Positions 6,382 to 33,507 of a stretch of 64,000 nt of DNA are shown one piece after another; the stretch's first letter is position 1; each line of letters begins with the position of its first letter. Source of the stretch: Alphaproteobacteria bacterium. Lineage in GTDB: Bacteria; Pseudomonadota; Alphaproteobacteria; SP197. The position numbers and the translations under genes were made by a program. The notes below the pieces were generated by a model. It was not told the origin of the DNA, did no database searches, and saw only the letters and a program-made list of their open reading frames with translations. The stretch covers positions 1,278,235-1,342,234 of the forward strand of contig OZ251464.1 of NCBI GenBank assembly GCA_965242595.1, read 5' to 3'.

Positions 6382-7346
6382 GCGACCCGCCGCAGCGTGG
6401 TGCCGCCCCCGGGACCGAACCCGTGGGCAGGCCCCAGGACAAACCCCTGCAGGGCATCGTTCTGATCGTGGTTGCGGTCGGCATCTGGGCGCTGCACGAC
6501 GCCGCCGCCAAATGGTATGCCGCCTTCTACCCGGTGTTCGTCATCCTGTTCTGGCGCAGCCTGTTCGGCGCCCTGCCGGTGTTCCTGCTGGCCAGCCGCC
6601 AGGGCGGTTTGCAGCGCATGACGGCCCGTCTGCATGTGCTGTGCCTGCTGCGCGGCACCGCCGGCTTCGGCGCCTTCGCCTGCTTCGTCTTCGCCCTGCC
6701 GTTGATGCCGCTGGCCGATGCCTTGGCCGTGGCCATGGCGGCGCCGATCTTCATCACCGCCGCCGCCGCCTTCGTGCTGAAGGAGCCGGTGGGTCCCCAT
6801 CGCTGGGGCGCGGTGCTGGCTGGCTTCGCGGCGGTGCTGTTCATGCTGCGCCCCGGCGGCGACATCCCGCTGGACGGCGCCGCCCTGCTGCTGGCCAGCA
6901 TCCTGTTTTTCACCACCGCCATGATGATGACCCGCCATCTGGGCCGGGTCGTCACCACCGCCTCGCTCACCATCTACACGGCCATCGCCTTTGCCGTGCT
7001 CAGCGCCATCGGCGCCGCCTTTTCCTGGACCTGGCCGCAATGGCAGGACGGCCTGGTGCTGGCGGCGGTGGGGCTGATGGCGGGGCTGGCCCAATACGCC
7101 ATGACGGCCGCCTTCCGCATCGCCCCGCCGGCCGTGCTGGCGCCGTTCGAATATACCGGCCTGGTGTGGGGCATCCTGCTGGGCCTGCTGCTGTGGAACG
7201 AATGGCCCAGCCCCGACATGGCGGTCGGCGCCGGCGTCATCGTCGCCTCGGGCCTCTATATCGTCTATCGCGAGCGCCTGGCCGCCCGACGCCGCCGCGC
7301 CGGAAAGGGGCGTGGCACAGCAGCACGCCCCCGTGCTGCGTCATAA
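6378..7346 (+). CDS. DMT superfamily (EamA-like) transporter, 10 TM
   Basis: Two EamA-like halves with characteristic hydrophobic periodicity. The C-terminal codons and stop codon are supplied by the first copy of the palindromic repeat cluster at 7321. Confidence 0.75.
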   Translation: MSDPPQRGAAPGTEPVGRPQDKPLQGIVLIVVAVGIWALHDAAAKWYAAFYPVFVILFWRSLFGALPVFLLASRQGGLQRMTARLHVLCLLRGTAGFGAFACFVFALPLMPLADALAVAMAAPIFITAAAAFVLKEPVGPHRWGAVLAGFAAVLFMLRPGGDIPLDGAALLLASILFFTTAMMMTRHLGRVVTTASLTIYTAIAFAVLSAIGAAFSWTWPQWQDGLVLAAVGLMAGLAQYAMTAAFRIAPPAVLAPFEYTGLVWGILLGLLLWNEWPSPDMAVGAGVIVASGLYIVYRERLAARRRRAGKGRGTAARPRAAS

Positions 7347-7437
7347 AGCAGAGTCCGGCACGCCCTCGTGCTGCGTCATAAAACAGAGTCCAGCACGCCC
7401 TCGTGCTGCGCCGCGCCCGGCACCGTGCTATGCTGCG
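7321..7437. repeat. Tandem array (3 copies plus a degenerate 4th) of a 35-bp unit containing a palindrome: CAGCACGCCC(C/T)CGTGCTGCGTCATAAA(A/G)CAGAGTCC
   Basis: Seen directly. 7-bp stem CAGCACG/CGTGCTG with a 4-nt loop. The same core, inverted, recurs at 8904-9000. Confidence 0.7.
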
Positions 7438-7457: not shown

Positions 7458-7874
7458 ATGAGCGAGACCATCGTCGGCGGCTGCCAGTGTGGCGCCGTGC
7501 GCTACCGGCTTTCGGCCCCCGTGCAGCGGGTGGAACACTGCCACTGCTCCATGTGCCGGCGGCTGCACGGGGCGCTGTTCACCAGCTTCGGCGTCGCGCG
7601 GCGTGCCGATTTCCAGCTGGAAGGCGAAGACGCCCTGGGCGACTACCCCAGCTCGCCCGGCGTCCACCGCCGTTTCTGCACCGCCTGCGGCGGCCAGATC
7701 GCGGTCGAGGTCGATACCAAGCCGGAGCAGATCGTCGTCTGCCTGGGCAGCCTGGATGCCGGCATGGCCCCTGGCCACGACCCGGCGGCGGAACGCCACG
7801 CCTGGTGGGGATCGAAGGTGGCCTGGTACGACCCCGGCGACAGCCTGCCCCGCCACCACGGTTCCGGAGGCTGA
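7458..7874 (+). CDS. GFA (glutathione-dependent formaldehyde-activating enzyme) / CENP-V family protein
   Basis: GGCQCGAVRY...CHCSMCRR...CTACG zinc-binding Cys pattern. Strong SD GGAGAGGG. Confidence 0.8.
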   Translation: MSETIVGGCQCGAVRYRLSAPVQRVEHCHCSMCRRLHGALFTSFGVARRADFQLEGEDALGDYPSSPGVHRRFCTACGGQIAVEVDTKPEQIVVCLGSLDAGMAPGHDPAAERHAWWGSKVAWYDPGDSLPRHHGSGG

Positions 7875-7875
7875 G

Positions 7876-8307
7876 ATGAACCCCACCGCCGCTTCCCCGC
7901 TGACCGGCGGCTGCCTGTGCGGCAGCGTCCGCTTCCAGCTCACCGCCCGCCCTTCCGATGTCTATCACTGCCACTGTTCCGTCTGCCGCAAATGCCAGGG
8001 CGCGCTTTACCCCACCTATGCCATGGTCCCCCGCGCCGACTTCCGCCTGGTGCAGGGCGCCGATGCCCTTTCCCGCTATGACAGCTCACCCAGCCTGCAC
8101 CGCCGTTTCTGCCCCACCTGCGGCGCCCATGTCTTCGCGGAGATGGACGATTCGCCCGACATCGTTTCGATCTGCGTCGCCAGCCTGGACGACGGCGCCG
8201 ACCCCGGCGGCAGGGAGGGGAGGGAGCGTCATATCTTCTGGGAATCGCGCTGCGGCTGGTACGAGCCGAACGACGCCCTGCCGCGCATGGTCGAGTTTGG
8301 CGACTAG
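7876..8307 (+). CDS. GFA/CENP-V family protein (tandem paralog)
   Basis: [10 protein letters not shown]...CHCSVCRK...CPTCG. SD GGAGG. Begins 1 nt after the upstream paralog stop. Confidence 0.8.
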
Positions 8308-8338: not shown

Positions 8339-10144
8339 GTGGCCGCGTTCCTTGCCCCATCCGTGTTCGATGGCGCCGCGCCCATGGCGGCGCCGGTGGG
8401 CAATGCCGCCTTCGCGCCGTCGCCCCGGGCCGGCCCCGCCCATGGCAGCTTCGAGGGCCGGCTGGAGATCGCCGGCGGGCGCCTCGCCAGCGCCTGCGCC
8501 GCCCTCGATCAGGAATTCGCGCTGGGTGGCGCGCCGCGCCGTTTTCCCTCGCTCGCCCTCGCCTTCACCAGCCATCGGGGCGAGCTGCTGCCGCTGTGGC
8601 GCGGCCTTCACCGCCGCCCCGACCGGGCGAGCTATTGGGATGTCATGGTCGGACCCGGGCGCATCTGGTCCGAACCCGGCGACGGCGCCCGGAGCCGCGC
8701 CGCCTTTCCCTTCCAGCTCTCCAACCAGGGCGAGAACGACAGCCACCACGGCGTCGCCTGCCTGCTGTTCGACGGCGAAGGTGTCAGCGGCCTGGTGCTG
8801 CAGGTGACGGTGGAAACCCGGCCCTATGACCTCCCCGCCGGCTTCGACCTCTGGGGCCGCCTCGCCGTCTCCTTCACCCCCGGCCCGGGCCCGGGCGCTT
8901 CCCATGACGCAGCACGGGGGCGTGCTGTCGCTTTCCATGGTGCAGCACGGGGGCGTGCTGTCGCTTTCTATGATGCAGCACGGGGGCGTGCTGCCGAGCG
9001 CCGCGGCGCCCCCCCCATTCGCCCGCTTGACGAGCTGCGCCCTGCCGTTGGCGACCGGCTGCTGGATGCCCTCGCCACGGGCACCGGCAGCGACAGCGAG
9101 ATCGTCGCCGGGCTGGCCTGCGACGGTGCCATCTATGCCAGCGCCGTCGCCACCCGGCACGGCCCCTTTCCCTATCCCCGGGCCATGCGCTTCGGCCTGT
9201 GGTCGGCCACCAAGGCGGCCTTCGCCACCACCGCCCTGCTGCGCCTCGCCCATCGTCTGGGGCCGGAGGTGGCCACCACCCGCATCGCCGATGTCATCCC
9301 CGCAGCCGCCGCGCATCCCCACTGGCAGCGGGTGACGATCCGCCACTGCCTCGACATGGCCTCGGGCATCGGCACCGCTGCGGGCCGCGCCGGGGCGCCC
9401 GACATCCATGCCGACAACCTGACCACACCCGAAGACGCTGCCGCCTCGCCGGAGGCGGCGCGCAGCTACCGCGCCTATCGCGACTGGTTCCAGGCGCCCT
9501 CTCTGGCCGGCAAGCTGGCGGCGGCCTTCGCCTGCCCTTCCTATCCCTGGGGGGCGGGCGAGGTGGCGCGCTATCGCGATCAGGATCTGTTCATGGCCGG
9601 CATCGCCATGGACGCCCTCTGGAAGCGTCGGCAGGGGCCGGATGCGGACCTTTTCGCCATGGTTGCCGAGGAGGTCTTCGCCCCCATCGGCATCGTCGGC
9701 GCCGATATCGGCCGCACCGTCGAAGCGGATGGGCGCCAGGGCGCGCCGCTGGGCGCCTTCGGCCTCTATCTGGGCATCGACGATGTGGCCAGGCTCGGCC
9801 GTCTGCTGGCCGGCGGCGGCGTGCATCGCGGGCAGCGTCTGCTGGAGCCGACGCTGCTCGCTGCCTGCTTCGACGGCCGCTTCGACAAGGGGCGCGCCAC
9901 CGGCACCTTCACGGCCGAAGGCCGCGAGATCGCCTACAGCCTCGCCTGTTGGCAGCTGCCCATGACCACCCGCGCCGGACGGCAGGTGCGCATCGCCACC
10001 ATGCGGGGCTATGGCGGCCAGATCGTGCAGCCGCTGTGGAACGGCATCGTCTGCTTCCGCTTTGCCTGCGATCCGCCCCATCCCGACCGGAGCTACGACG
10101 CCCTGAAGCTGCCCCGCATCGCCGACGCCCTGAAGCCGCTCTAG
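8339..10144 (+). CDS. Serine hydrolase (beta-lactamase/transpeptidase-like fold) with an N-terminal domain of unknown function and an in-frame 99-bp repeat insertion
   Basis: S-x-x-K motif in [18 protein letters not shown]-terminal ...MRGYGGQIV resembles the KTG/GxG region of class C-like serine hydrolases. 601-aa ORF with GTG start. Codons 190-222 ([11 protein letters not shown] x3) are encoded by the palindromic repeat cluster. It could alternatively be a disrupted gene. Confidence 0.5.
8904..9000. repeat. Tandem array (3 copies) of a 33-bp palindrome-containing unit ATG(A/G)(C/T)GCAGCACGGGGGCGTGCTGTCGCTTTCC. It is the reverse complement of the 7321 cluster core.
   Basis: Seen directly. 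The shared 24-bp core is CAGCACGCCCCCGTGCTGCGTCAT. It lies inside the CDS 8339-10144 in frame (11 codons per unit). Confidence 0.7.
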
Positions 10145-11037: not shown

Positions 11038-11594
11038 TCAGTCGCTCTCCAGCTCGCTGTCCCAATAGAGGTAGTCGCGCCAGTCCCGGTGCAGGAAATT
11101 GGGCGGAAAGGCGCGCCCGTTCTCGCGCAGCTGCCAGGTGGAGGGCACCGCCGGTGCTCGCTGGGGGATCATGTTTGCTTCTTGGGGGGTGCGGTTGGAC
11201 TTGCGGATGTTGCAGCGGCTGCAGGCGGTGACGACGTTGGCCCAGGTGGTTCGGCCGCCGCGGGAGCGGGGGGTGACGTGGTCGAAGGTCAGCTCGCGCG
11301 TTTCGAAGCGGCCGTTGCAGTACTGGCAGGAGAAGCGGTCGCGCAGGAAGACGTTGAAGCGGGTGAAGGCCGGGCGCCGGCTTAGCGGGATGAACTGGCG
11401 CAGGGCGATGACGCTGGGAAGGCGCATGGCGAGGCTGGGCGAATGCACCACCCGCTCATATTCGGACAGCGTTTGCACCCGGCCCATGAACACCGCCTTC
11501 ACCGCGTCCTGCCAGGACCACAGCGAGAGCGGGAAGTAGCTGAGCGGGCGAAAATCCGCATTCAGCACCAGCGCGGGACAGGCTTGGGGGAGCA
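11038..11594 (-). CDS. HNH endonuclease (McrA-like 5-methylcytosine restriction-type, single domain)
   Basis: CQYCNGRF...[13 protein letters not shown]...[12 protein letters not shown] is the HNH motif. The N-terminal [24 protein letters not shown] is typical of this roughly 185-aa family. GTG start with SD GAGGAG. Confidence 0.65.
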
Positions 11595-11770
11595 CCGGAC
11601 ATCTCCTCGGGGTCTGTCGCCTTCCGCCCTGCGCCTTGGGCCGGGCGGCAGCGGCGCGCCATCTTAGCCGCAATGGCGCGCCGTGGCACCGCATTTTGCC
11701 TCTCCTCGCCCACGTGCTGCGTTATGGGATATGCTGTGTTACGATAAGGGGCGCGGGAGGCTCCGAGACC

Positions 11771-13489
11771 ATGACCCGATGGGACAAATCCAGACTGCCC
11801 AGCCGCCATGTCTCGCTGGGGGCGAAGAGCGCGCCGCACCGCGCCTTCTATTACGCCATGGGCATGAGCGACCAGGAGGTGGCCCAGCCCTTCGTCGGCG
11901 TCGCCACCACCTGGAACGAGGCGGCGCCCTGCAACATCACGCTGATGCGCCAGGCCCAGGCCGTGAAAAAGGGGGTGAAGGCCGGCGGCGGCACGCCGCG
12001 CGAGTTCACCACCATCACCGTCACCGACGGCATCGCCATGGGCCATGCCGGCATGAAATCGTCGCTGGTCAGCCGCGAGGTGATCGCCGATTCGGTGGAG
12101 CTCACCATGCGCGGCCATTGCTACGACGCCCTGGTGGGGCTGGCCGGCTGCGACAAATCGCTGCCCGGCATGATGATGGCGATGCTGCGCCTCAACGTGC
12201 CTTCCGTGTTCCTCTATGGCGGCTCGATCATGCCCGGGCGCTATCGCAACCGGGATGTCACCATCGTCGATGTGTTCGAAGGCGTCGGCGCCCATGCGGC
12301 CGGGGCCATGTCCGACGCCGAACTCGACCTTCTGGAGCATGTCGCCTGCCCTTCCGGCGGTTCCTGCGGCGGCCAGTTCACGGCCAACACCATGGCCACG
12401 GTGTCGGAGGCCATCGGGCTGGCGCTTCCCAATTCGGCCATGACGCCGGCGCCGTTCGAAAGCCGCGACGCCTTTGCCGAGGCTTCGGGCCAGGCGGCGA
12501 TGCGGCTTGTTGCCGACAATCTCCGCCCGCGCGATATCGTGACCCGCAAGGCGCTGGAAAATGCCGCCACCGTGGTCGCCGCCACCGGCGGTTCCACCAA
12601 TGCCGGCCTGCATCTGCCGGCCATCGCCCATGAGGCGGGCATCGCCTTCACGCTGGACGATGTCTGCGCCATCTTCCGCCGCACCCCCTATATCGCCGAT
12701 CTCAAGCCCGGCGGGCGCTATGTCGCCAAGGATCTTTACGGAGTGGGCGGCGTGCCGGTGCTGATCCGGACGCTGCTGGACGGTGGCTGGCTTCATGGCG
12801 ACACGCTCACCGTCACCGGGCGCACCCTGGAGGAGAACCACGCCGACATCGTTTTCCCGGACGACCAGGACGTGATCCGCCCGGCCAGCGCGCCGCTTTC
12901 GCCCAGCGGCGGGGTCGTCGGGCTGAAGGGCAATCTGGCGCCGGAAGGGGCGATCGTGAAGGTGGCCGGCATGAAGACCCAGAGCTTCCGCGGCCCTGCC
13001 CGCTGCTTCGACAGCGAAGAGGCCTGCCTGGAGGCGGTGCTGGCCCAGCGCTTTGCCGAAGGCGATGTGCTGGCGATCCGCTATGAAGGCCCCAGGGGCG
13101 GCCCCGGCATGAGGGAGATGCTGGCGACCACCGGCGCCCTTTACGGCCAGGGCATGGGCGAAAAGGTGGCGCTGATCACCGATGGGCGCTTTTCCGGCGC
13201 CACCCGCGGCTTCTGCATCGGCCATGTCGGCCCCGAAGCCGCTGTCGGCGGCCCCATCGGCCTGCTGCAAGACGGCGACACCATCGCCATCGACGCCGAA
13301 CGCGGGCGCCTGGACGTGGAGCTGAGCGCGGACGAGCTGGAGCGTCGCCGCCAAGCCTGGCGCCCGCGCCAGACCGACTATACCTCCGGCACCATCTGGA
13401 AATACGCCCAGACCGTAGGCGCCGCCCATCTGGGCGCCGTCACCCACCCCGGCGGCCACGGCGAAAGCCACGTCTTCGCGGATCTTTAG
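11771..13489 (+). CDS. ilvD: Dihydroxy-acid dehydratase (IlvD/EDD family)
   Basis: 572 aa. [16 protein letters not shown] Fe-S ligands, ...[15 protein letters not shown]..., and N-terminal [14 protein letters not shown] are typical of IlvD. Confidence 0.8.
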
Positions 13490-13506
13490 AGCGGATGGGG
13501 GGCAAG

Positions 13507-14181
13507 ATGATCGTTGTCATTCAATGTGCTAAAAGCAAAAGGGATCATGCTGGCCATCTCGTGAATAACGCCGGCCGAAAAGTGTTGTTTGTCGCTCGTC
13601 CCGAAGAAGCCTCCGCTTGTGAAGGTTACATCTTTGCACGACCGGACGACGACGATGGCACGGGTGTCTCATGGCGGAACCAACTGTTGGAGTACAATAA
13701 AAATTCCAATAGCAATCCGCTAGGTTTGTTGCCGGCGGTGGAACTCTACAAACATCCGATCTACGAACACCTGGCGCGACATTATGGACGCGAGAATCTC
13801 TACATACTTTCGGCAGGTTGGGGTCTGATTGCAGCAGATTTTCTGACACCAGCCTACGACATCACATTCAGCAGTGACGCTGAGTCCTGTCATCGACGGC
13901 GTCAAAGCGATATTTATTGCGACTTCCACATGCTGCCGGACGATACGACAGAGCCTGTCATATTCCTCGGTGGCAAGAGTTACGTTAAACTTTTTTGCTC
14001 ATTAACCAGGAACGTGAAAGGTAAGCGATATGTTTTTCATAAAGGCAAGCAATATGTTTTTCATGTATCCCGGGGTGAACCCCATGCTCCGAAGTGTTTT
14101 TTCAAGAGATTCGAGACAACAGCCCGAAGTTGGCACTATGAATGCGCTCACGCCCTTATCGAAGGCAGGATCGGTATCTGA
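13507..14181 (+). CDS. Hypothetical protein (224 aa) in a low-GC islet. No family recognised; Cys/His-rich C-terminus.
   Basis: GC content drops sharply over 13495-14200 (AT-rich codons, e.g. aaaagcaaaagggatcatgct). G-rich SD before ATG 13507. Protein MIVVIQCAKSKRDHAGHLVNNAGRKVLFVARPEE...YILSAGWGLIAADFLTPAYDITFSSDAESCHRRRQSDIYCDFHMLPDD.... Confidence 0.55.
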   Translation: MIVVIQCAKSKRDHAGHLVNNAGRKVLFVARPEEASACEGYIFARPDDDDGTGVSWRNQLLEYNKNSNSNPLGLLPAVELYKHPIYEHLARHYGRENLYILSAGWGLIAADFLTPAYDITFSSDAESCHRRRQSDIYCDFHMLPDDTTEPVIFLGGKSYVKLFCSLTRNVKGKRYVFHKGKQYVFHVSRGEPHAPKCFFKRFETTARSWHYECAHALIEGRIGI

Positions 14182-14219
14182 GCGACCCGCATGGCGAATG
14201 TGCCAAAGCCCCGCTCCGC

Positions 14220-14630
14220 TCACCCCGCCTTGGCGCTGCTGAAGCCCTCCTTTCTGGGCAGGTCGTCGCCGGTCTTGAACCAGGGGATGCTGTCTGCCGT
14301 CATGGTGTGCATGGCGGGTGGGAAGGCGGCGGGGGTGTCCAGGGTGGCGGTGTAGATGTGCACCTCGCCCGGCCAGGCATCGCCCTCATAGGTGAGCGAA
14401 CTGCCGCAGGCGGCGCAGAAGCCGCGCCGCACCCCGGGCGAAGAGCGGTAGATGGCCCGCTTGCCAGCGATGTCCTGATAGCACCCGGCCACCACGCCGA
14501 CAAAGGCGGCCACCGGCGCCCCGGTTGCCCGCTGGCAGCTGCGGCAATGGCACAGGCTGGTGAACCTGGCGGGCGTGGCGATGCGATAGCGCACCCTGCC
14601 GCACATGCAGCCGCCTTCGTAGCTCGCCAT
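14220..14630 (-). CDS. GFA/CENP-V family protein (third paralog in window)
   Basis: MASYEGGCMCGRVRY...CHCRSCQR...CAACG. SD GGGGAGGGATGGG. Confidence 0.75.
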   Translation of the reverse strand: MASYEGGCMCGRVRYRIATPARFTSLCHCRSCQRATGAPVAAFVGVVAGCYQDIAGKRAIYRSSPGVRRGFCAACGSSLTYEGDAWPGEVHIYTATLDTPAAFPPAMHTMTADSIPWFKTGDDLPRKEGFSSAKAG

Positions 14631-29467: not shown

Positions 29468-30105
29468 GCGGTGGCGAGGCCCCTTTCCTGCGGCTGCTGA
29501 TGGAGCTGCGCAGCCAGGGCATCCACGACATGGCCGTGCTGCGGGCGCTGGAGGCGACGCCGCGCGATCTGTTCGTGCCGGGCGAGCTGGCCAGCCAGGC
29601 CTGGGAGAACACGGCGCTGCCGATCGGCTGCGGCCAGACCGTCAGCCAGCCCATCGTGGTGGCGCTGATGACCCAGAAGCTGGCCCTGGAAAAGCATATG
29701 CGGGTGCTGGAGGTGGGCACCGGCTCGGGCTATCAGGCGGCGATTCTGGCCCGCCTGGCGGCGCGGGTCTATACGGTGGAACGCCATGGCGAGCTGCTGC
29801 GCCAGGCGCAGCGCCGTTTCGACGCCCTGGCGCTCCACAATGTCACCACCATGCGCGGCGACGGCGCCAGGGGCTGGCCGCGCCAGGCGCCGTTCGACAG
29901 AATCGTGGTGACGGCCGCCGCCCGGCGCATGCCGGAGGCGCTGATCCGGCAGCTGACGCCGGGCGGTACCATGGTCGTGCCGGTGGGCGAAGACATGTGG
30001 AGCCAGAAGCTCAACCATGTCGAGCGGCTGGACGATGGCTATCGATGCGAGGCCTTTCTCGATGTGCGTTTCGTGCCGCTGGTGGAAGGCGCCGACAGGC
30101 CTTGA
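29464..30105 (+). CDS. pcm: Protein-L-isoaspartate O-methyltransferase
   Basis: VLEVGTGSGYQAAILARLA SAM motif. ATGA overlap with surE. surE-pcm-nlpD order as in many proteobacteria. Confidence 0.85.
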   Translation: MSGGEAPFLRLLMELRSQGIHDMAVLRALEATPRDLFVPGELASQAWENTALPIGCGQTVSQPIVVALMTQKLALEKHMRVLEVGTGSGYQAAILARLAARVYTVERHGELLRQAQRRFDALALHNVTTMRGDGARGWPRQAPFDRIVVTAAARRMPEALIRQLTPGGTMVVPVGEDMWSQKLNHVERLDDGYRCEAFLDVRFVPLVEGADRP

Positions 30106-30121
30106 ACGGGCGCGGCGGGCC

Positions 30122-31117
30122 GTGGCGCGCTTTGCCCGCCGCCGGCTGCCCCCCCCGGCCACCGTCACGGCCGGCATCCTGGCCGCGGCGCTGCTGGCGG
30201 CGTGCAGCCAGCCGCCGGCCCCGGTCACCTTCGGCGCCTCGTCGGGCGGGGCCAGCCCGCCGCTGCCGCCCGAACTGCCGCCCCAATTGCCGATAACGGA
30301 CCATGCCGGCGCCGTTCCGCCTCTGCCCGGGTTCAAACCGCAACCGCCCGCCGCCGCGCCGGCCCAGGGCGGCGACGAGGCCCCCCTGGCCGACGATCTC
30401 ATCGCCCATATCGAGGCGATCCTGCTGGCCGAGGAGGCCCAGGGCGAACCGCAGCCGGTGGCGACCCAGACCCTGGAGACGGAGGCCGGAACGGTGGTGG
30501 TTCTCACCGTGGCGTCCGGCGATACCCTCTACGGGCTGGCGCGGCGGCTGGGCGTCACCGCCCGCCAGCTGATCGAGGCCAACGGCCTGGCGGCGCCCTA
30601 CGACCTGCTGATCGGGCAGAAGCTGAAGGTGCCGGCCGCCGGCGCTGCCGCCGCGCCGCCGGCCCCAGATGCCAGCCCGCCGCCGGTGACCGGGCCGGTC
30701 GAGGCGCCGCCGCTCCCCGCCTCCCGGGCCGATGGCGAACTACGCTTCGCCTGGCCGGTGGCGGGCCGCGTCATCTCCTCCTTCGGGCCGAAAAGCGGCG
30801 GGCGCCACAACGACGGCATCAACATCGCCGCCCCGGCCGGCACGCCGGTGCGGGCGGCGGAGGACGGCGTGGTCGCCTATGCCGGCGACGAGCTGCGAGG
30901 CTATGGCAATCTGGTGCTGCTGCGCCACGCCGATGGCTGGGTCAGCGCCTATGCCCACAACGCCGAAAACCTGGTCTCGCGCGGCCAGACCGTGTTGCGG
31001 GGCGACGTCATCGCCAGCGTCGGGGCCAGCGGCGGCGTCACCCACCCCCAATCCCATTTCGAACTGCGCCGCGGCACCGAAGCCGTGGACCCGCTGCCCC
31101 ATCTGGGCAGCCCTTAG
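30122..31117 (+). CDS. nlpD: LysM + M23 peptidase lipoprotein (NlpD-like)
   Basis: Lipobox LLAAC. LysM segment VASGDTLYGLARRLGVTARQLIEANGL. M23 motifs HNDGINIAAPAGTPVRAAEDGVV...GNLVLLRHADGWVSAYAH...HFELRRG. Confidence 0.75.
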   Translation: MARFARRRLPPPATVTAGILAAALLAACSQPPAPVTFGASSGGASPPLPPELPPQLPITDHAGAVPPLPGFKPQPPAAAPAQGGDEAPLADDLIAHIEAILLAEEAQGEPQPVATQTLETEAGTVVVLTVASGDTLYGLARRLGVTARQLIEANGLAAPYDLLIGQKLKVPAAGAAAAPPAPDASPPPVTGPVEAPPLPASRADGELRFAWPVAGRVISSFGPKSGGRHNDGINIAAPAGTPVRAAEDGVVAYAGDELRGYGNLVLLRHADGWVSAYAHNAENLVSRGQTVLRGDVIASVGASGGVTHPQSHFELRRGTEAVDPLPHLGSP

Positions 31118-31245
31118 GCGGGAAGCGGCCGGCGCCGGAATAGCAGTTGTGAGCAGGCAGGAAAATCTATTGTGCCGACGCGATCTCAAACTACCGCTTT
31201 GTAGCATTTCTCTTCAGCATTGGGCGGACAACGCTCTGTGAAACA

Positions 31246-32055
31246 TCATACCTCCACACACTCAAAGCGCAGTTGATTTTCCGTGACCTGCTTGTCATGG
31301 GGCACCGTGCATACCCGTAGGCAAGGAACGAAAGCCTGCCCGCAAACAGCCCATTTCTTATTCCAAACACCGTCTGGGAACAGACGTCGGCTATGACTCG
31401 TTACATGCCTTCCCCAACACGTGCTATCGGTGAACGGTCTCCCGAGATCCTCTACGTCTGTTGCTTTGAGAAATCCCAAATAAACAAGAACCACTGGATA
31501 ACCCAGTTCGGTGAGTTTCCAGGACCAGGAGAAACGGTTGGATATCTGATAGCAGAGGTCGCGCGATAGTGACCAATCATGTCCTGTCGCTTTCGTTAAG
31601 GCCATACTGGCCTCACAAATACATTTTTCAATTCGTTTGTGATTGCGTCGGGAGTCTTCACTCGCATCAGATTTTAATGGTTTACCATTGAGACTCAATT
31701 CTTTTGTGTGAGCTTTTGCTTCGACGAGAAGTAATCCCCTTGCGCCATCAATTTTGCAAGTACTGGCGATATCGAAGTTCGGAGTATTAGGGTTATTAGA
31801 ACTCACTGCAATCCACCAATGGCATAAAGTATCTTGATCCTTCTCCGGCAACAGGGGTGATCGATCCAAACGTGCTTCCTCGGTCCGACAAAATCCTTGT
31901 GGTAGCCAGCTGTCATTCGCCGACACTTCGATCCATGGTGCAGCCAGCTTCGTCAAGCGCGCGGCGACTTCCTCAGGCTTCCCATGAGTAAGCCAGTGGC
32001 AACGTGGCTTACTTCCTCTACGCCCTTTCGCGGGCAGCTTATTGAGCAGGCTCAT
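31246..32055 (-). CDS. PD-(D/E)xK nuclease-like protein (candidate restriction/defence endonuclease) in a low-GC islet
   Basis: About 48-50% GC versus about 70% in the flanks. Motif ...NTPNFDIASTCKIDGARGLLLVEAKAH... fits D-x(n)-E-x-K of the restriction endonuclease-like fold. The 270-aa ORF starts MSLLNKLPAKGRR. An alternative start lies 19 codons upstream. A 13-codon upstream mini-ORF with a good SD overlaps the start. Confidence 0.6.
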   Translation of the reverse strand: MSLLNKLPAKGRRGSKPRCHWLTHGKPEEVAARLTKLAAPWIEVSANDSWLPQGFCRTEEARLDRSPLLPEKDQDTLCHWWIAVSSNNPNTPNFDIASTCKIDGARGLLLVEAKAHTKELSLNGKPLKSDASEDSRRNHKRIEKCICEASMALTKATGHDWSLSRDLCYQISNRFSWSWKLTELGYPVVLVYLGFLKATDVEDLGRPFTDSTCWGRHVTSHSRRLFPDGVWNKKWAVCGQAFVPCLRVCTVPHDKQVTENQLRFECVEV

Positions 32056-32150
32056 GGTATGTCCATTTGGTCGCGCGCATGGTTGCCTCTCTACCTGTAT
32101 GTCGCTTGACATGCAAGCTGAACTGGCTTCCTCGTTCCAGGCCGCCCCGT

Positions 32151-33035
32151 TCAATCCAGCCTGCGGCCCAGGCGGCCTGCCAGGTCCTGGATGAACTGCC
32201 AGGCGACGCGGCCGGAGCGGGCGCCGCGGCCGGCTTGCCAGGCGATCGCCTGGGCGTGGAGGGCGGGGGTTGCGACCGCGAGGCCGAAATGGGTGGCATA
32301 GCCCTCGACGATGGCGAGATAGGTCGGCTGGTCGCAGCCATGGATGCCCAGCCACAGGCCGAAGCGGTCGGAAAGCGAGACCTTTTCCTCCACCGCTTCC
32401 CCCGGCGCGATGGCCGTGGAGCGTTCGTTCTCCATCATGTCGCGCGGCATCAGATGGCGCCGGTTGGAGGTGGCGTAGAACAGCACGTTGTCCGGGCGGC
32501 CCTCGATGCCGCCTTCCAGCACCGCCTTGAGCGATTTGAAGGCGGCGTCGCCGGCCTCGAAGGAGAGGTCGTCGCACAGCAGGATGGCGCGGCGGTCGGT
32601 TCCGCGCAGGCGGGCCAGGAGGCGGGGCAGGGTGGCGAGGTCGTCGCGGTGGATCTCGATCAGCGCCAGGGGGGCATCGGTGTCGGCCTGGGCGGCGATA
32701 TGGGCGTTGACGTGGGCGTGCACCGCCTTCACCAGGCTGGATTTGCCCATGCCGCGCGCGCCCCACAGCAGGGCGTTGTTGGCCGGCAGGGCGCGGGCGA
32801 AACGCCCGGTGTTGGCGAGCAGCGCCCGTTTGGCCGCCTCGATCCCCCGCAGCAGGGCCAGTGGCACATGCCTCACCCGGGCCACGGCGCGCAGGGTGCC
32901 GGACTGGGGCTGCCAGACGAAGGCGTCGCCCGCATCCAGGGCATCGTCGCGGGCCGGTGGCGGCGCCATGCGTTCCAGCGCCGCGGCGATGCGCGCCAGA
33001 AGCTCGCCGCCCGGAAGCTCATCATGAGTGCTCAT
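32151..33035 (-). CDS. AAA-type ATPase of the DUF815 family
   Basis: Walker A LLWGARGMGKSSLVKAV, Walker B-like ILLCDDLSFE, about 295 aa. Host-like GC. Divergent from yajC. Confidence 0.65.
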   Translation of the reverse strand: MSTHDELPGGELLARIAAALERMAPPPARDDALDAGDAFVWQPQSGTLRAVARVRHVPLALLRGIEAAKRALLANTGRFARALPANNALLWGARGMGKSSLVKAVHAHVNAHIAAQADTDAPLALIEIHRDDLATLPRLLARLRGTDRRAILLCDDLSFEAGDAAFKSLKAVLEGGIEGRPDNVLFYATSNRRHLMPRDMMENERSTAIAPGEAVEEKVSLSDRFGLWLGIHGCDQPTYLAIVEGYATHFGLAVATPALHAQAIAWQAGRGARSGRVAWQFIQDLAGRLGRRLD

Positions 33036-33138
33036 GGCGGCGGACCCTAGTCCGGATCGCGGCGGCGGGGTAGCGCGGCGCTTGCATCCGCCGGGCGGGT
33101 GGCTATAGTCCGCCACCTCCAAGACATCGGAGACCACC

Positions 33139-33507
33139 ATGCTGATTGCCGAGGCTTATGCGCAGGAGGTCGGCGGCGCCGGCGGCGGGTTCGACCCCAT
33201 CTTCCTGATCATGATGGTCGCCATGTTCGGCGTCTTCTGGTTCCTGGTGATTCGCCCCCAGTCGAAGCGCACCAAGGAGCATCGGGCCATGCTGAGCGCC
33301 ATCAGGCGCGGCGACCATGTGGTCACCAATGGCGGCATCATGGGCCGCGTCGCCCGCCTGGAAGGCGACGGCGTGCTGATCCTGGAGATCGCCCCCAATG
33401 TGCGGGTGAAGTGTCAGCAGTCCATGATCGCCAGCATGGCGGCCCGGCCCGAGCCGCGAGCGGCCGAGAAGGACGACGAGGACGGCGGCGACCGCAAGGA
33501 CGGCTGA
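33139..33507 (+). CDS. yajC: Preprotein translocase subunit YajC
   Basis: FLIMMVAMFGVFWFLVIRPQSKRTKEHRAMLSAIRRGDHVVTNGGIMGRV; SD GGAGA. Confidence 0.85.
   Translation: MLIAEAYAQEVGGAGGGFDPIFLIMMVAMFGVFWFLVIRPQSKRTKEHRAMLSAIRRGDHVVTNGGIMGRVARLEGDGVLILEIAPNVRVKCQQSMIASMAARPEPRAAEKDDEDGGDRKDG

Follow-up and report, generated by a model that had tools for sequence, protein, structure and literature searches.

A solo DUF6884-family gene resembling PDC-M57A in a variable slot between ilvD and a GFA-family gene of an alphaproteobacterium

The DUF6884 family (PF21818) is defined by its Pfam curators by a CxxxK and an LSAxxG motif within a YaaA-like 'cantaloupe' fold (PMC11701544). Its members include Bacillus subtilis YfjM, which in an AlphaFold3 model flips a base of a DNA-RNA hybrid into the motif site (PMC11701544) and which is enriched on abasic and ribonucleotide-containing DNA (PMC10220248). 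DpdC, also assigned to DUF6884 (bioRxiv 10.1101/2025.02.24.639861), is the sole biochemically characterized member and performs unusual DNA-base chemistry by hydrating preQ0 in DNA; DpdC alone converts preQ0-DNA to ADG-DNA, in a reaction that lists only buffer, Mg2+ and dithiothreitol (PMC10164549). PDC-M57 (CAS_00183) is a two-gene candidate defense system known from gene association, one of 145 candidates obtained by 'guilt by embedding' and recorded with 46 occurrences, its gene pair having been found embedded in BREX, DISARM or type I restriction-modification (R-M) systems (PADLOC; Payne et al., bioRxiv 10.1101/2024.01.29.577857). A literature search found no paper naming PDC-M57, PF26468, GIY_YIG_3 or a YaaA/GIY-YIG pairing. 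Here we describe a gene at 13495..14181 (+) of a 64,000-nucleotide stretch of alphaproteobacterial contig OZ251464.1 (hereafter the window, to which all coordinates without a locus name refer) as a new solo member of this catalogued, uncharacterized family (DUF6884, PDC-M57A-like), and compare it with homologous loci, in most of which it is paired with a predicted nuclease gene. In the following, A denotes the DUF6884 gene or protein and B its usual partner.

The window gene resembles each of the described systems in part. As in PDC-M57, the homologous loci hold two adjacent genes on the same strand, of which the usual partner matches PDC-M57B and the window gene matches PDC-M57A; however, the window has the A-like half only, and the A subtype concerned is ~217 amino acids (aa) long versus 138 positions in the PADLOC A model. 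With DUF6884, including YfjM, the window protein shares a score above the gathering threshold, the CxxxK and LSAxxG motifs and the YaaA-like fold, but it exceeds the 135-position Pfam model by ~80 aa. Its N- and C-terminal extensions are conserved within the ~217-aa subfamily (WR, NPLGLLPAW, RRR and TRTNWHYEC), and this subfamily has a dedicated GIY_YIG_3 partner that the Pfam description of DUF6884 does not mention. DpdC belongs to the same Pfam family, acts on a base within DNA by cofactor-independent hydrolysis and works within a system that includes nucleases as well, whereas the window locus lacks dpdA/dpdB or a preQ0 context, the likeness is limited to the motif region, and DpdC is ~300 aa long versus 224 aa for the window protein. 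The one structural match of significance is to Escherichia coli YaaA (DUF328, PDB 5caj), whose LSGLYG...QPYRLE segment aligns with the LSAGWG...TPAYDIT block of the window protein; in contrast, YaaA is a core gene and not a mobile one, its profile match is below the Pfam threshold, and, as read from the sequences, it carries a Ser (ISPAK) where the window family has an invariant Cys (QCAxxK). R.Eco29kI/M.Eco29kI is likewise a pair of genes for a nuclease of the GIY-YIG type and an enzyme that flips DNA bases (both roles being predicted for the module described here), although A is not a methyltransferase, no cofactor domain was detected in it, and solo nuclease genes are tolerated among the homologous loci.

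The window gene: family, fold and genomic slot

An initial annotation made from the sequence had regarded the product of this gene as an orphan of unknown family, a view that homology searches overturned. The window protein scored 31.7 bits against PF21818 (cutoff 30, E 2e-7, residues 76-168), and a precomputed PF21818 tag was carried by at least 90 of its best 120 homologs. At least 1,310 homologs were returned by a word-indexed search, most of them ~217 aa long and 52-59% identical over their full length, and HMMER, run exhaustively with the family profile, identified 1,020 clusters (50% identity) at E<=1e-3 and 379 at E<=1e-30. Among the PADLOC models, PDC-M57A (PDLC04712) was matched weakly (E 5e-8, 31.4 bits, profile positions 20-117 of 138) and four DpdC models were also matched, the best at E 1.4e-6 but over residues 94-133 only of the window protein, on a 312-position profile. 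Further profile matches were to phrog_5935 and, weakly, to YaaA, the YaaA/DUF328 profile (PF03883) giving 14.3 bits at E 0.03, under its cutoff of 29.6. An apparent orphan thus becomes a classifiable accessory gene.

Structure prediction, proposed as a check in the initial annotation, also placed the protein. The AlphaFold2 model reached a predicted local distance difference test (pLDDT) score of 92.7 and a predicted template modeling score of 0.90, and a Foldseek search against solved structures returned chain 5caj_A of YaaA as the sole match at E<=1e-3 (E 2.4e-4, probability 1.00, template modeling scores 0.46/0.40). On the basis of this model, the window protein can confidently be predicted to share the YaaA-like alpha/beta 'cantaloupe' fold with DUF6884.

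The open reading frame (ORF) is intact; translated from ATG13495 it gives 228 aa, and from ATG13507, which is the family's ancestral start, 224 aa. A GGGGGG stretch does precede ATG13507, as expected of the G-rich Shine-Dalgarno sequence that had been suggested for it; however, ATG13495 is the start kept in the ortholog on metagenome scaffold L051, which has ACG at the position of ATG13507, so the conserved start lies at ATG13495, 4-5 nucleotides beyond the ilvD stop. An alignment of 50 sequences showed C7, K11, S102, G104, W105, G106, L113-T-P115, Y117, D118, T120, R130, R131, D139, Y159, W209 and Y211 to be invariant, and the window protein keeps every one of these residues. They include both residues that define the CxxxK motif, C7-A-K-S-K11 (codons 13525..13539, +), a putative part of the active site, and residues of the LSAxxG motif, L101-S-A-G-W-G106 (codons 13807..13824, +), which runs into LTPxYDIT and lies in the region matched by the DpdC and PDC-M57A models. 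The same alignment led us to reject a Cys/His-rich, possibly metal-binding C terminus as a family feature, the Cys/His richness being mostly lineage-specific. C128, H129, C138 and H141 are private to the window lineage, where ESCH and YCDFH replace the consensus xxYK and YDDFR (consensus Y, K, D and R at the four positions), and of the Cys and His residues in the C-terminal half only C164 and C197 are nearly invariant. Two further changes are private to the window copy. A 24-nucleotide in-frame tandem duplication (14017..14064, +; two copies, 92% identical, located by a repeat search) adds the 8 aa KGKQYVFH and is missing from L051 and 49 other homologs; it contains residues 182-188, the sole segment of the model under pLDDT 50. 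The nearly invariant Asn before WHY is also lost, in frame.

The low GC content of the ORF and its position between ilvD and a GFA-family gene were confirmed as first annotated. GC content is 0.47-0.52 across 13500-14200 against ~0.70 around it, and that of the ORF is 0.489 against a window mean of 0.702 (standard deviation 0.048; z = -4.39). Only 0.3% of equal-sized segments were equally low, and every one of them belongs either to this island or to one of two more, located at ~31 kb and ~56 kb. At third codon positions, the ORF has a GC content of 0.498, compared with 0.866 for ilvD, 0.891 for the GFA gene and 0.867 for argS. A foreign origin is supported by this difference (0.50 versus 0.87-0.89) together with the occurrence of homologs in many phyla with a gene GC content decoupled from that of the host.

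Relatives of the window locus were sought with IlvD, for which named matches reached 82-83% and those from Dongia and Hypericibacter 77-78%; on this evidence, the host is an uncultured Rhodospirillales-like alphaproteobacterium. In L138, the closest relative (IlvD 98%), gene order is the same on either side, but the same two stop codons enclose 875 bp of cargo unrelated to A (L138:5720-6599, GC 0.61), which bears out the presence/absence polymorphism that the initial annotation had suggested looking for. On the left, the slot is bounded by the ilvD stop TAG (13487-13489) and a 5-nucleotide spacer that separates it from ATG13495 (13487..13494, +), with L138 homology ending at 13493. On the right, it is bounded by a 38-nucleotide GC-rich spacer and the stop codon of the minus-strand GFA gene (14220-14222; boundary 14182..14222), with homology resuming at 14219. 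The L138 cargo encodes a Caps_synth (PF05704)-like gene broken by a poly-G tract of ~23 nucleotides, which could be a phase-variable homopolymer or an assembly artifact. The same Caps_synth-like alternative cargo is present in L139 (95%; L139:4698-4991), and L141 (86%) has a third cargo, a 76-aa ORF with a GC content of 0.525. Among genomes whose flanks are 95-99% identical, the slot is thus occupied either by the DUF6884 gene or by the Caps_synth-like one.

The L051 scaffold carries the window arrangement, with the 3' end of ilvD followed by A and then GFA, and orthology with the window extends over 1.75 kb, with a nucleotide identity of 90.6%; its A protein is 82% identical to that of the window, and its GFA ortholog 93.4% identical. 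A same-locus ortholog with host-like GC content had been named beforehand as evidence against a foreign insertion. An ortholog does exist here, but the GC content of its gene is 0.50 versus 0.71 and therefore not host-like. Because the flanks of L051, with A, and L138, without it, are 98.6% and 99.4% identical, both slot alleles are segregating in what is essentially a single population, which makes the gene accessory. The ilvD-GFA junction is thus a cargo slot bounded exactly by two stop codons, holding different cargo in close relatives and exchanged by recombination within a single population, and the DUF6884 gene is an intact, horizontally acquired accessory gene. The suggested single-gene foreign insertion into a core locus is borne out by its unameliorated composition and its polymorphism among close relatives.

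Scars of a mobile element were not detected at the insertion, as there are no tRNA genes, no Rfam matches and no direct repeats at the boundaries. A 13-nucleotide imperfect inverted repeat (85% complementary; 13489-13501 and 14209-14221) brackets the DUF6884 gene exactly; it is probably due to chance, since it is no better than seven other pairs in 1.1 kb and its arms are not conserved in L051. A phage origin was rejected, there being no match in 50,697 phage records and one IMG/VR contig.

The genes around the DUF6884 gene are ilvD, an HNH gene, GFA, an Amdase-like gene and xth. The upstream core gene ilvD (11771..13489, +; alternative start 11636) encodes a dihydroxy-acid dehydratase according to homolog names and PF00920/PF24877, and the right-hand limit of the slot is a convergent core gene (14220..14630, -) matching the GFA family (PF04828, E 3.1e-20). 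Two GFA-family paralogs lie upstream at 7476-7862 (+) and 7906-8298 (+), bringing the copies in the window to three; these two are 33-40% identical to the slot-bounding GFA, and L138 and L141 also have GFA arrays. Divergent and upstream of ilvD is an HNH_5/HNH endonuclease gene (11038-11694, -; E 1.7e-16), which is kept in L138 and L139; as these lack the DUF6884 gene, the two are not linked. It is also unrelated to the HNH genes found beside A or B on Roseomonas and Haloarcula plasmids. We found no promoter-like or terminator-like site between ilvD and the DUF6884 gene, and the spacing suggests that ilvD probably provides both transcription and translational coupling for its downstream neighbor.

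The two-gene module and its solo halves

To place the window gene among its homologs, we used a set of 50 A-seeded loci from species-representative genomes. These loci span Alpha-, Beta- and Gammaproteobacteria, Acidobacteriota, Nitrospirales, Spirochaetia, Binatia, Dadabacteria, Gemmatimonadota and others, and the module as a whole extends over bacterial phyla and to haloarchaeal plasmids. A partner of ~235 aa, B, lies immediately upstream of A on the same strand in 40 of 47 genome loci, and the stop codon of B overlaps the start codon of A as ATGA (4 nucleotides) in 29 of the 33 pairs measured. A B-seeded scan of metagenome contigs found a full A in 46 of ~64 informative loci. Overall, roughly 80% of homologous loci have A as the second gene of a pair with GIY_YIG_3 B.

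B is a full-length match to PADLOC PDC-M57B (E 2.6e-86). A search with B returned 6,249 homologs at 65-79% identity, the best 120 of which are all tagged PF26468, a family named GIY_YIG_3 in the precomputed annotation; the tag is also present on the B proteins of L133-L137. The AlphaFold2 model of B (pLDDT 86.6) has a beta-beta-alpha-alpha-beta-alpha core, and Foldseek searches of PDB and BFVD returned R.Eco29kI (E 5.5-8.9) and a phage GIY-YIG_SF protein (E 2.5), neither of them significant. Profile searches of B against PDB sequences, a local Pfam in which the PF26468 model is not included, and NCBIfam gave no match. Comparison by hhalign with verified UvrC-N and I-TevI domains gave probabilities under 1% with single-sequence templates, which are insensitive here; because the same method assigns the genuine A-YaaA relationship a probability of 0.5%, these negatives are uninformative.

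A functional link between the two proteins is strongly supported by fusions, by a second DUF6884 subtype that also pairs with B and by the lack of a third conserved gene. In fusion P0396, residues 1-233 correspond to B (E 1e-89) and residues 238-447 to A, matching the window protein at E 5e-57; B-A fusions also occur in P0366, P0415 and P0451, with additional small domains. The second subtype is short (140 aa) and adjoins a B homolog on a Deinococcus plasmid. A PADLOC and Pfam scan of 110 flanking ORFs, together with a comparison of the HNH and ArdC-like neighbors, revealed no third conserved gene, no family appearing more than twice among the flanking ORFs; one QueC and no TGT were present among these neighbors. 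The neighbors are mixed, with housekeeping genes, integrases, relaxases and reverse transcriptases next to the defense genes AriA, HEC-06, SspE and mad3.

Two further features of these loci were observed. An ArdC-like antirestriction gene (HExxH zincin, 310-360 aa) directly adjoins the cassette or solo A in L037, L040, L041, L043 and L019 (Rhodobacterales/Paracoccaceae), which points to carriage on conjugative elements in this clade. One or two extra small domains are also present in many A or B-A proteins (P0366, P0415, P0451, P0363, P0372, P0413, P0386 and P0041) and may serve the system as sensor or DNA-binding units. One has the pattern '...KY.PL..HL...L(T/S)F..IE.I.G..LP.SA..H..WWAN...SH..A.AW..AGW.V', with P0041 carrying a precomputed PF24698 tag, and the other 'ADRIR.FA..H.V.PAR..G....TIRAGDV...MGL.NR.PNVCSAL'.

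The window itself encodes the A-like half only and hence does not hold a PDC-M57 system. A tblastn search with 17 B queries found no B-like sequence in the 64-kb window (best E 0.025) and no remnant of B upstream of the A gene, where ilvD occupies the position normally held by B. Solo A copies were found in ~7 of the 50 A-seeded loci, and are known from L014, L017, L019, L031, L035, L039 and Roseomonas plasmids; as they are scattered over the A tree, B has been lost repeatedly. One of them, 45% identical to the window protein, lies on a Roseomonas mucosa plasmid (L142, NZ_CP044118.1, 15119-25754) beside an IS6 transposase and a convergent HNH-motif gene; the same locus contains a block of DUF1156, MBL-fold hydrolase and helicase-related genes resembling a defense island. 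Conversely, among ~68 B-seeded metagenome loci A is missing in 9-14 and degraded in 4 more, giving 13-18 loci with B solo or with A degraded, and L046 and L049 combine an intact B with a truncated A.

Sequence comparison shows that the solo copy is under purifying selection. Between the A genes of the window and L051, the ratio of nonsynonymous to synonymous substitution rates (dN/dS) is 0.27 at a dS of 0.27, compared with 0.12 for ilvD and 0.25 for GFA, and falls inside the range of six pairs of partnered A genes (0.12-0.37). The window protein deviates at 3 of 70 highly conserved columns, the family median being 2, and derived substitutions are balanced between the window and L051 branches (8 versus ~9). 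Relaxed selection or decay was accordingly rejected, none being detected by dN/dS, conserved columns or the balance of substitutions.

Taken as a whole, the comparison gives a first coherent description of a module that had been catalogued only as a pair of hidden Markov models. Its traits are strict translational coupling through the ATGA overlap, occasional fusion, two DUF6884 subtypes associated with one nuclease family, and tolerance of either half alone, and these traits favor cooperating enzymes over a toxin and its antidote. The interest of the locus lies mainly in the module, through the evidence on its architecture, fusion and solo tolerance, and less in the window gene. The link to defense guessed at in the initial annotation was reasonable, because the usual two-gene form of the gene is the candidate system PDC-M57; the parallel guess of a toxin found no supporting evidence, A being the non-nuclease half of the module.

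Proposed role and rival explanations

We lean, with moderate confidence and by analogy with the family members described above, toward the window gene encoding a solo DUF6884 base recognition or processing protein derived from a GIY-YIG nuclease module. The protein would bind DNA in a basic cleft and, following the YfjM model, flip a nucleotide into a pocket whose walls would comprise Cys7, Lys11 and the LSAGWG/LTPxYDIT loop. There it may recognize or hydrolyze a non-canonical base, modified or damaged, in the cofactor-independent manner suggested by DpdC and YfjM. In the full module, recognition by A would direct the GIY-YIG nuclease B to the DNA, resulting in modification-dependent restriction or in lesion excision, whereas in the window genome the recognition or processing step alone would remain, with A probably expressed from the ilvD transcript through translational coupling.

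Several observations weigh against this explanation. The PF21818 score is marginal, barely over the cutoff, and the PDC-M57A model is matched weakly, at 31 bits and over positions 20-117 of 138. The GIY-YIG assignment of B comes from the name of its Pfam family, and our own Foldseek and hhalign runs gave no confirmation of it. Expression of the window gene is deduced from gene spacing alone, the 8-aa duplication and the missing Asn before WHY, both indels private to the window copy, could impair function, and the surroundings of the cassettes are only partly those of defense or mobile elements, many being housekeeping genes.

A role in housekeeping DNA repair or stress appears unlikely. A would then recognize abasic sites, ribonucleotides or oxidized bases, with B as a UvrC-like nicking partner, and a solo A would hand lesions to host nucleases. 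The one solved structure that matches the fold significantly is that of YaaA, a protein active in peroxide stress (PMC11701544); this and the enrichment of YfjM on abasic and ribonucleotide-containing DNA fit such a role, as do the many cassettes amid housekeeping genes and the conserved solo copy co-oriented with a core gene. However, the patchy distribution over phyla with gene GC decoupled from host GC, the presence or absence of the gene between genomes with 98.6-99.4% identical flanks, the recurrence of transposases, ArdC, relaxases and defense genes as neighbors, and the embedding of the pair in BREX, DISARM or type I R-M systems recorded by PADLOC are traits of an accessory or selfish module and not of core repair. 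An R-M-like or toxin-antitoxin (TA)-like arrangement, with B as a toxic nuclease against which A shields host DNA, either by modifying it or by neutralizing B, is about as improbable and ranks slightly lower in our estimate. GIY-YIG nucleases can act as restriction enzymes, R.Eco29kI being an example, and this precedent is joined by a weak fold echo for B, the tight B-A coupling (ATGA overlap in 29 of 33 pairs), the independent origin of several solo A copies that stay intact and the purifying selection on the window copy, which would be an 'orphan immunity' gene kept, like an orphan methyltransferase, against incoming elements that carry B. Yet a lethal nuclease should rarely survive alone, and B is found intact without A about as often as A without B, so that the asymmetry of type II TA and classical R-M systems, with the protective gene often alone and the toxic gene rarely so, is not seen in the counts of loci. 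That each half is tolerated alone argues against a strict toxin/antidote or restriction/modification dependency, and the single-polypeptide B-A fusions fit cooperating enzymes better. Self-marking of ordinary DNA is also hard to picture for A, which is small and in which a Pfam profile scan detected no cofactor-binding domain. More doubtful still, and again argued by analogy, is the bolder proposal that GIY_YIG_3 and DUF6884 form a new class of base-directed nuclease and that solo A is an active base 'eraser' or glycosylase-like defense enzyme carried as accessory cargo; here a DpdC-like, cofactor-free base-flipper would sense or hydrolyze a phage hypermodification or a lesion and thereby license the GIY-YIG nuclease.

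Both remaining alternatives are clearly less probable than these. That the gene is a functionless passenger, a decaying PDC-M57 remnant that has lost its nuclease, is improbable: the window contains no partner gene, the composition is unameliorated, other cargo occupies the same slot in sister genomes and one of the two private indels removes a nearly invariant Asn, but the frame is intact in two lineages at a dS of 0.27, the dN/dS of 0.27 is no higher than in paired copies, the invariant motif residues are all kept, substitutions are balanced and both indels are in frame. A true DpdC ortholog, converting preQ0 to the amide (ADG) in 7-deazaguanine-modified DNA, is the least credible possibility and close to negligible. 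Although four PADLOC DpdC models match, the best at E 1.4e-6, and DpdC has been placed in DUF6884, the matches span 30-60 residues around LSAGWG on profiles of 299-319 positions, the neighbors are ilvD and GFA with no dpdA/dpdB, and among the 110 cassette neighbors there is one QueC and no TGT. The solo base recognition or processing protein set out above thus remains the explanation we prefer.

Other islands and repeats in the window

A second sharp single-gene island of low GC content (0.42-0.55 versus 0.70) lies at ~31150-32100 (-), in ORF 31246..32766, with a LysM/M23-like peptidase gene (30017-31117) on one side and an ATPase gene (32151-33140) on the other. Its protein of ~270-288 aa (MSSDIQVERQ...LLLVEAKAH...RFECVEV) has no Pfam match and contains an ExK-like motif, which may hint at a PD-(D/E)xK nuclease. 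The product of a third island (56301-57092, +; GC ~0.55) is an ankyrin-repeat protein of 263 aa (Ank_2, E 3.6e-64) whose N terminus is hydrophobic and signal-like; its ankyrin repeats correspond to a 102-bp tandem repeat of 2.5 copies at 56671-56920. Free-living bacteria seldom have ankyrin proteins, which frequently act as factors in host interaction. Two shorter repeats were also observed, a 33-bp tandem repeat of three copies (92% matches; 8896-8993) that gives a repeated AARGRAVAF peptide in a beta-lactamase-like ORF (8339-10144), and a 35-bp repeat of 2.6 copies (7321-7410) just upstream of the GFA paralogs.

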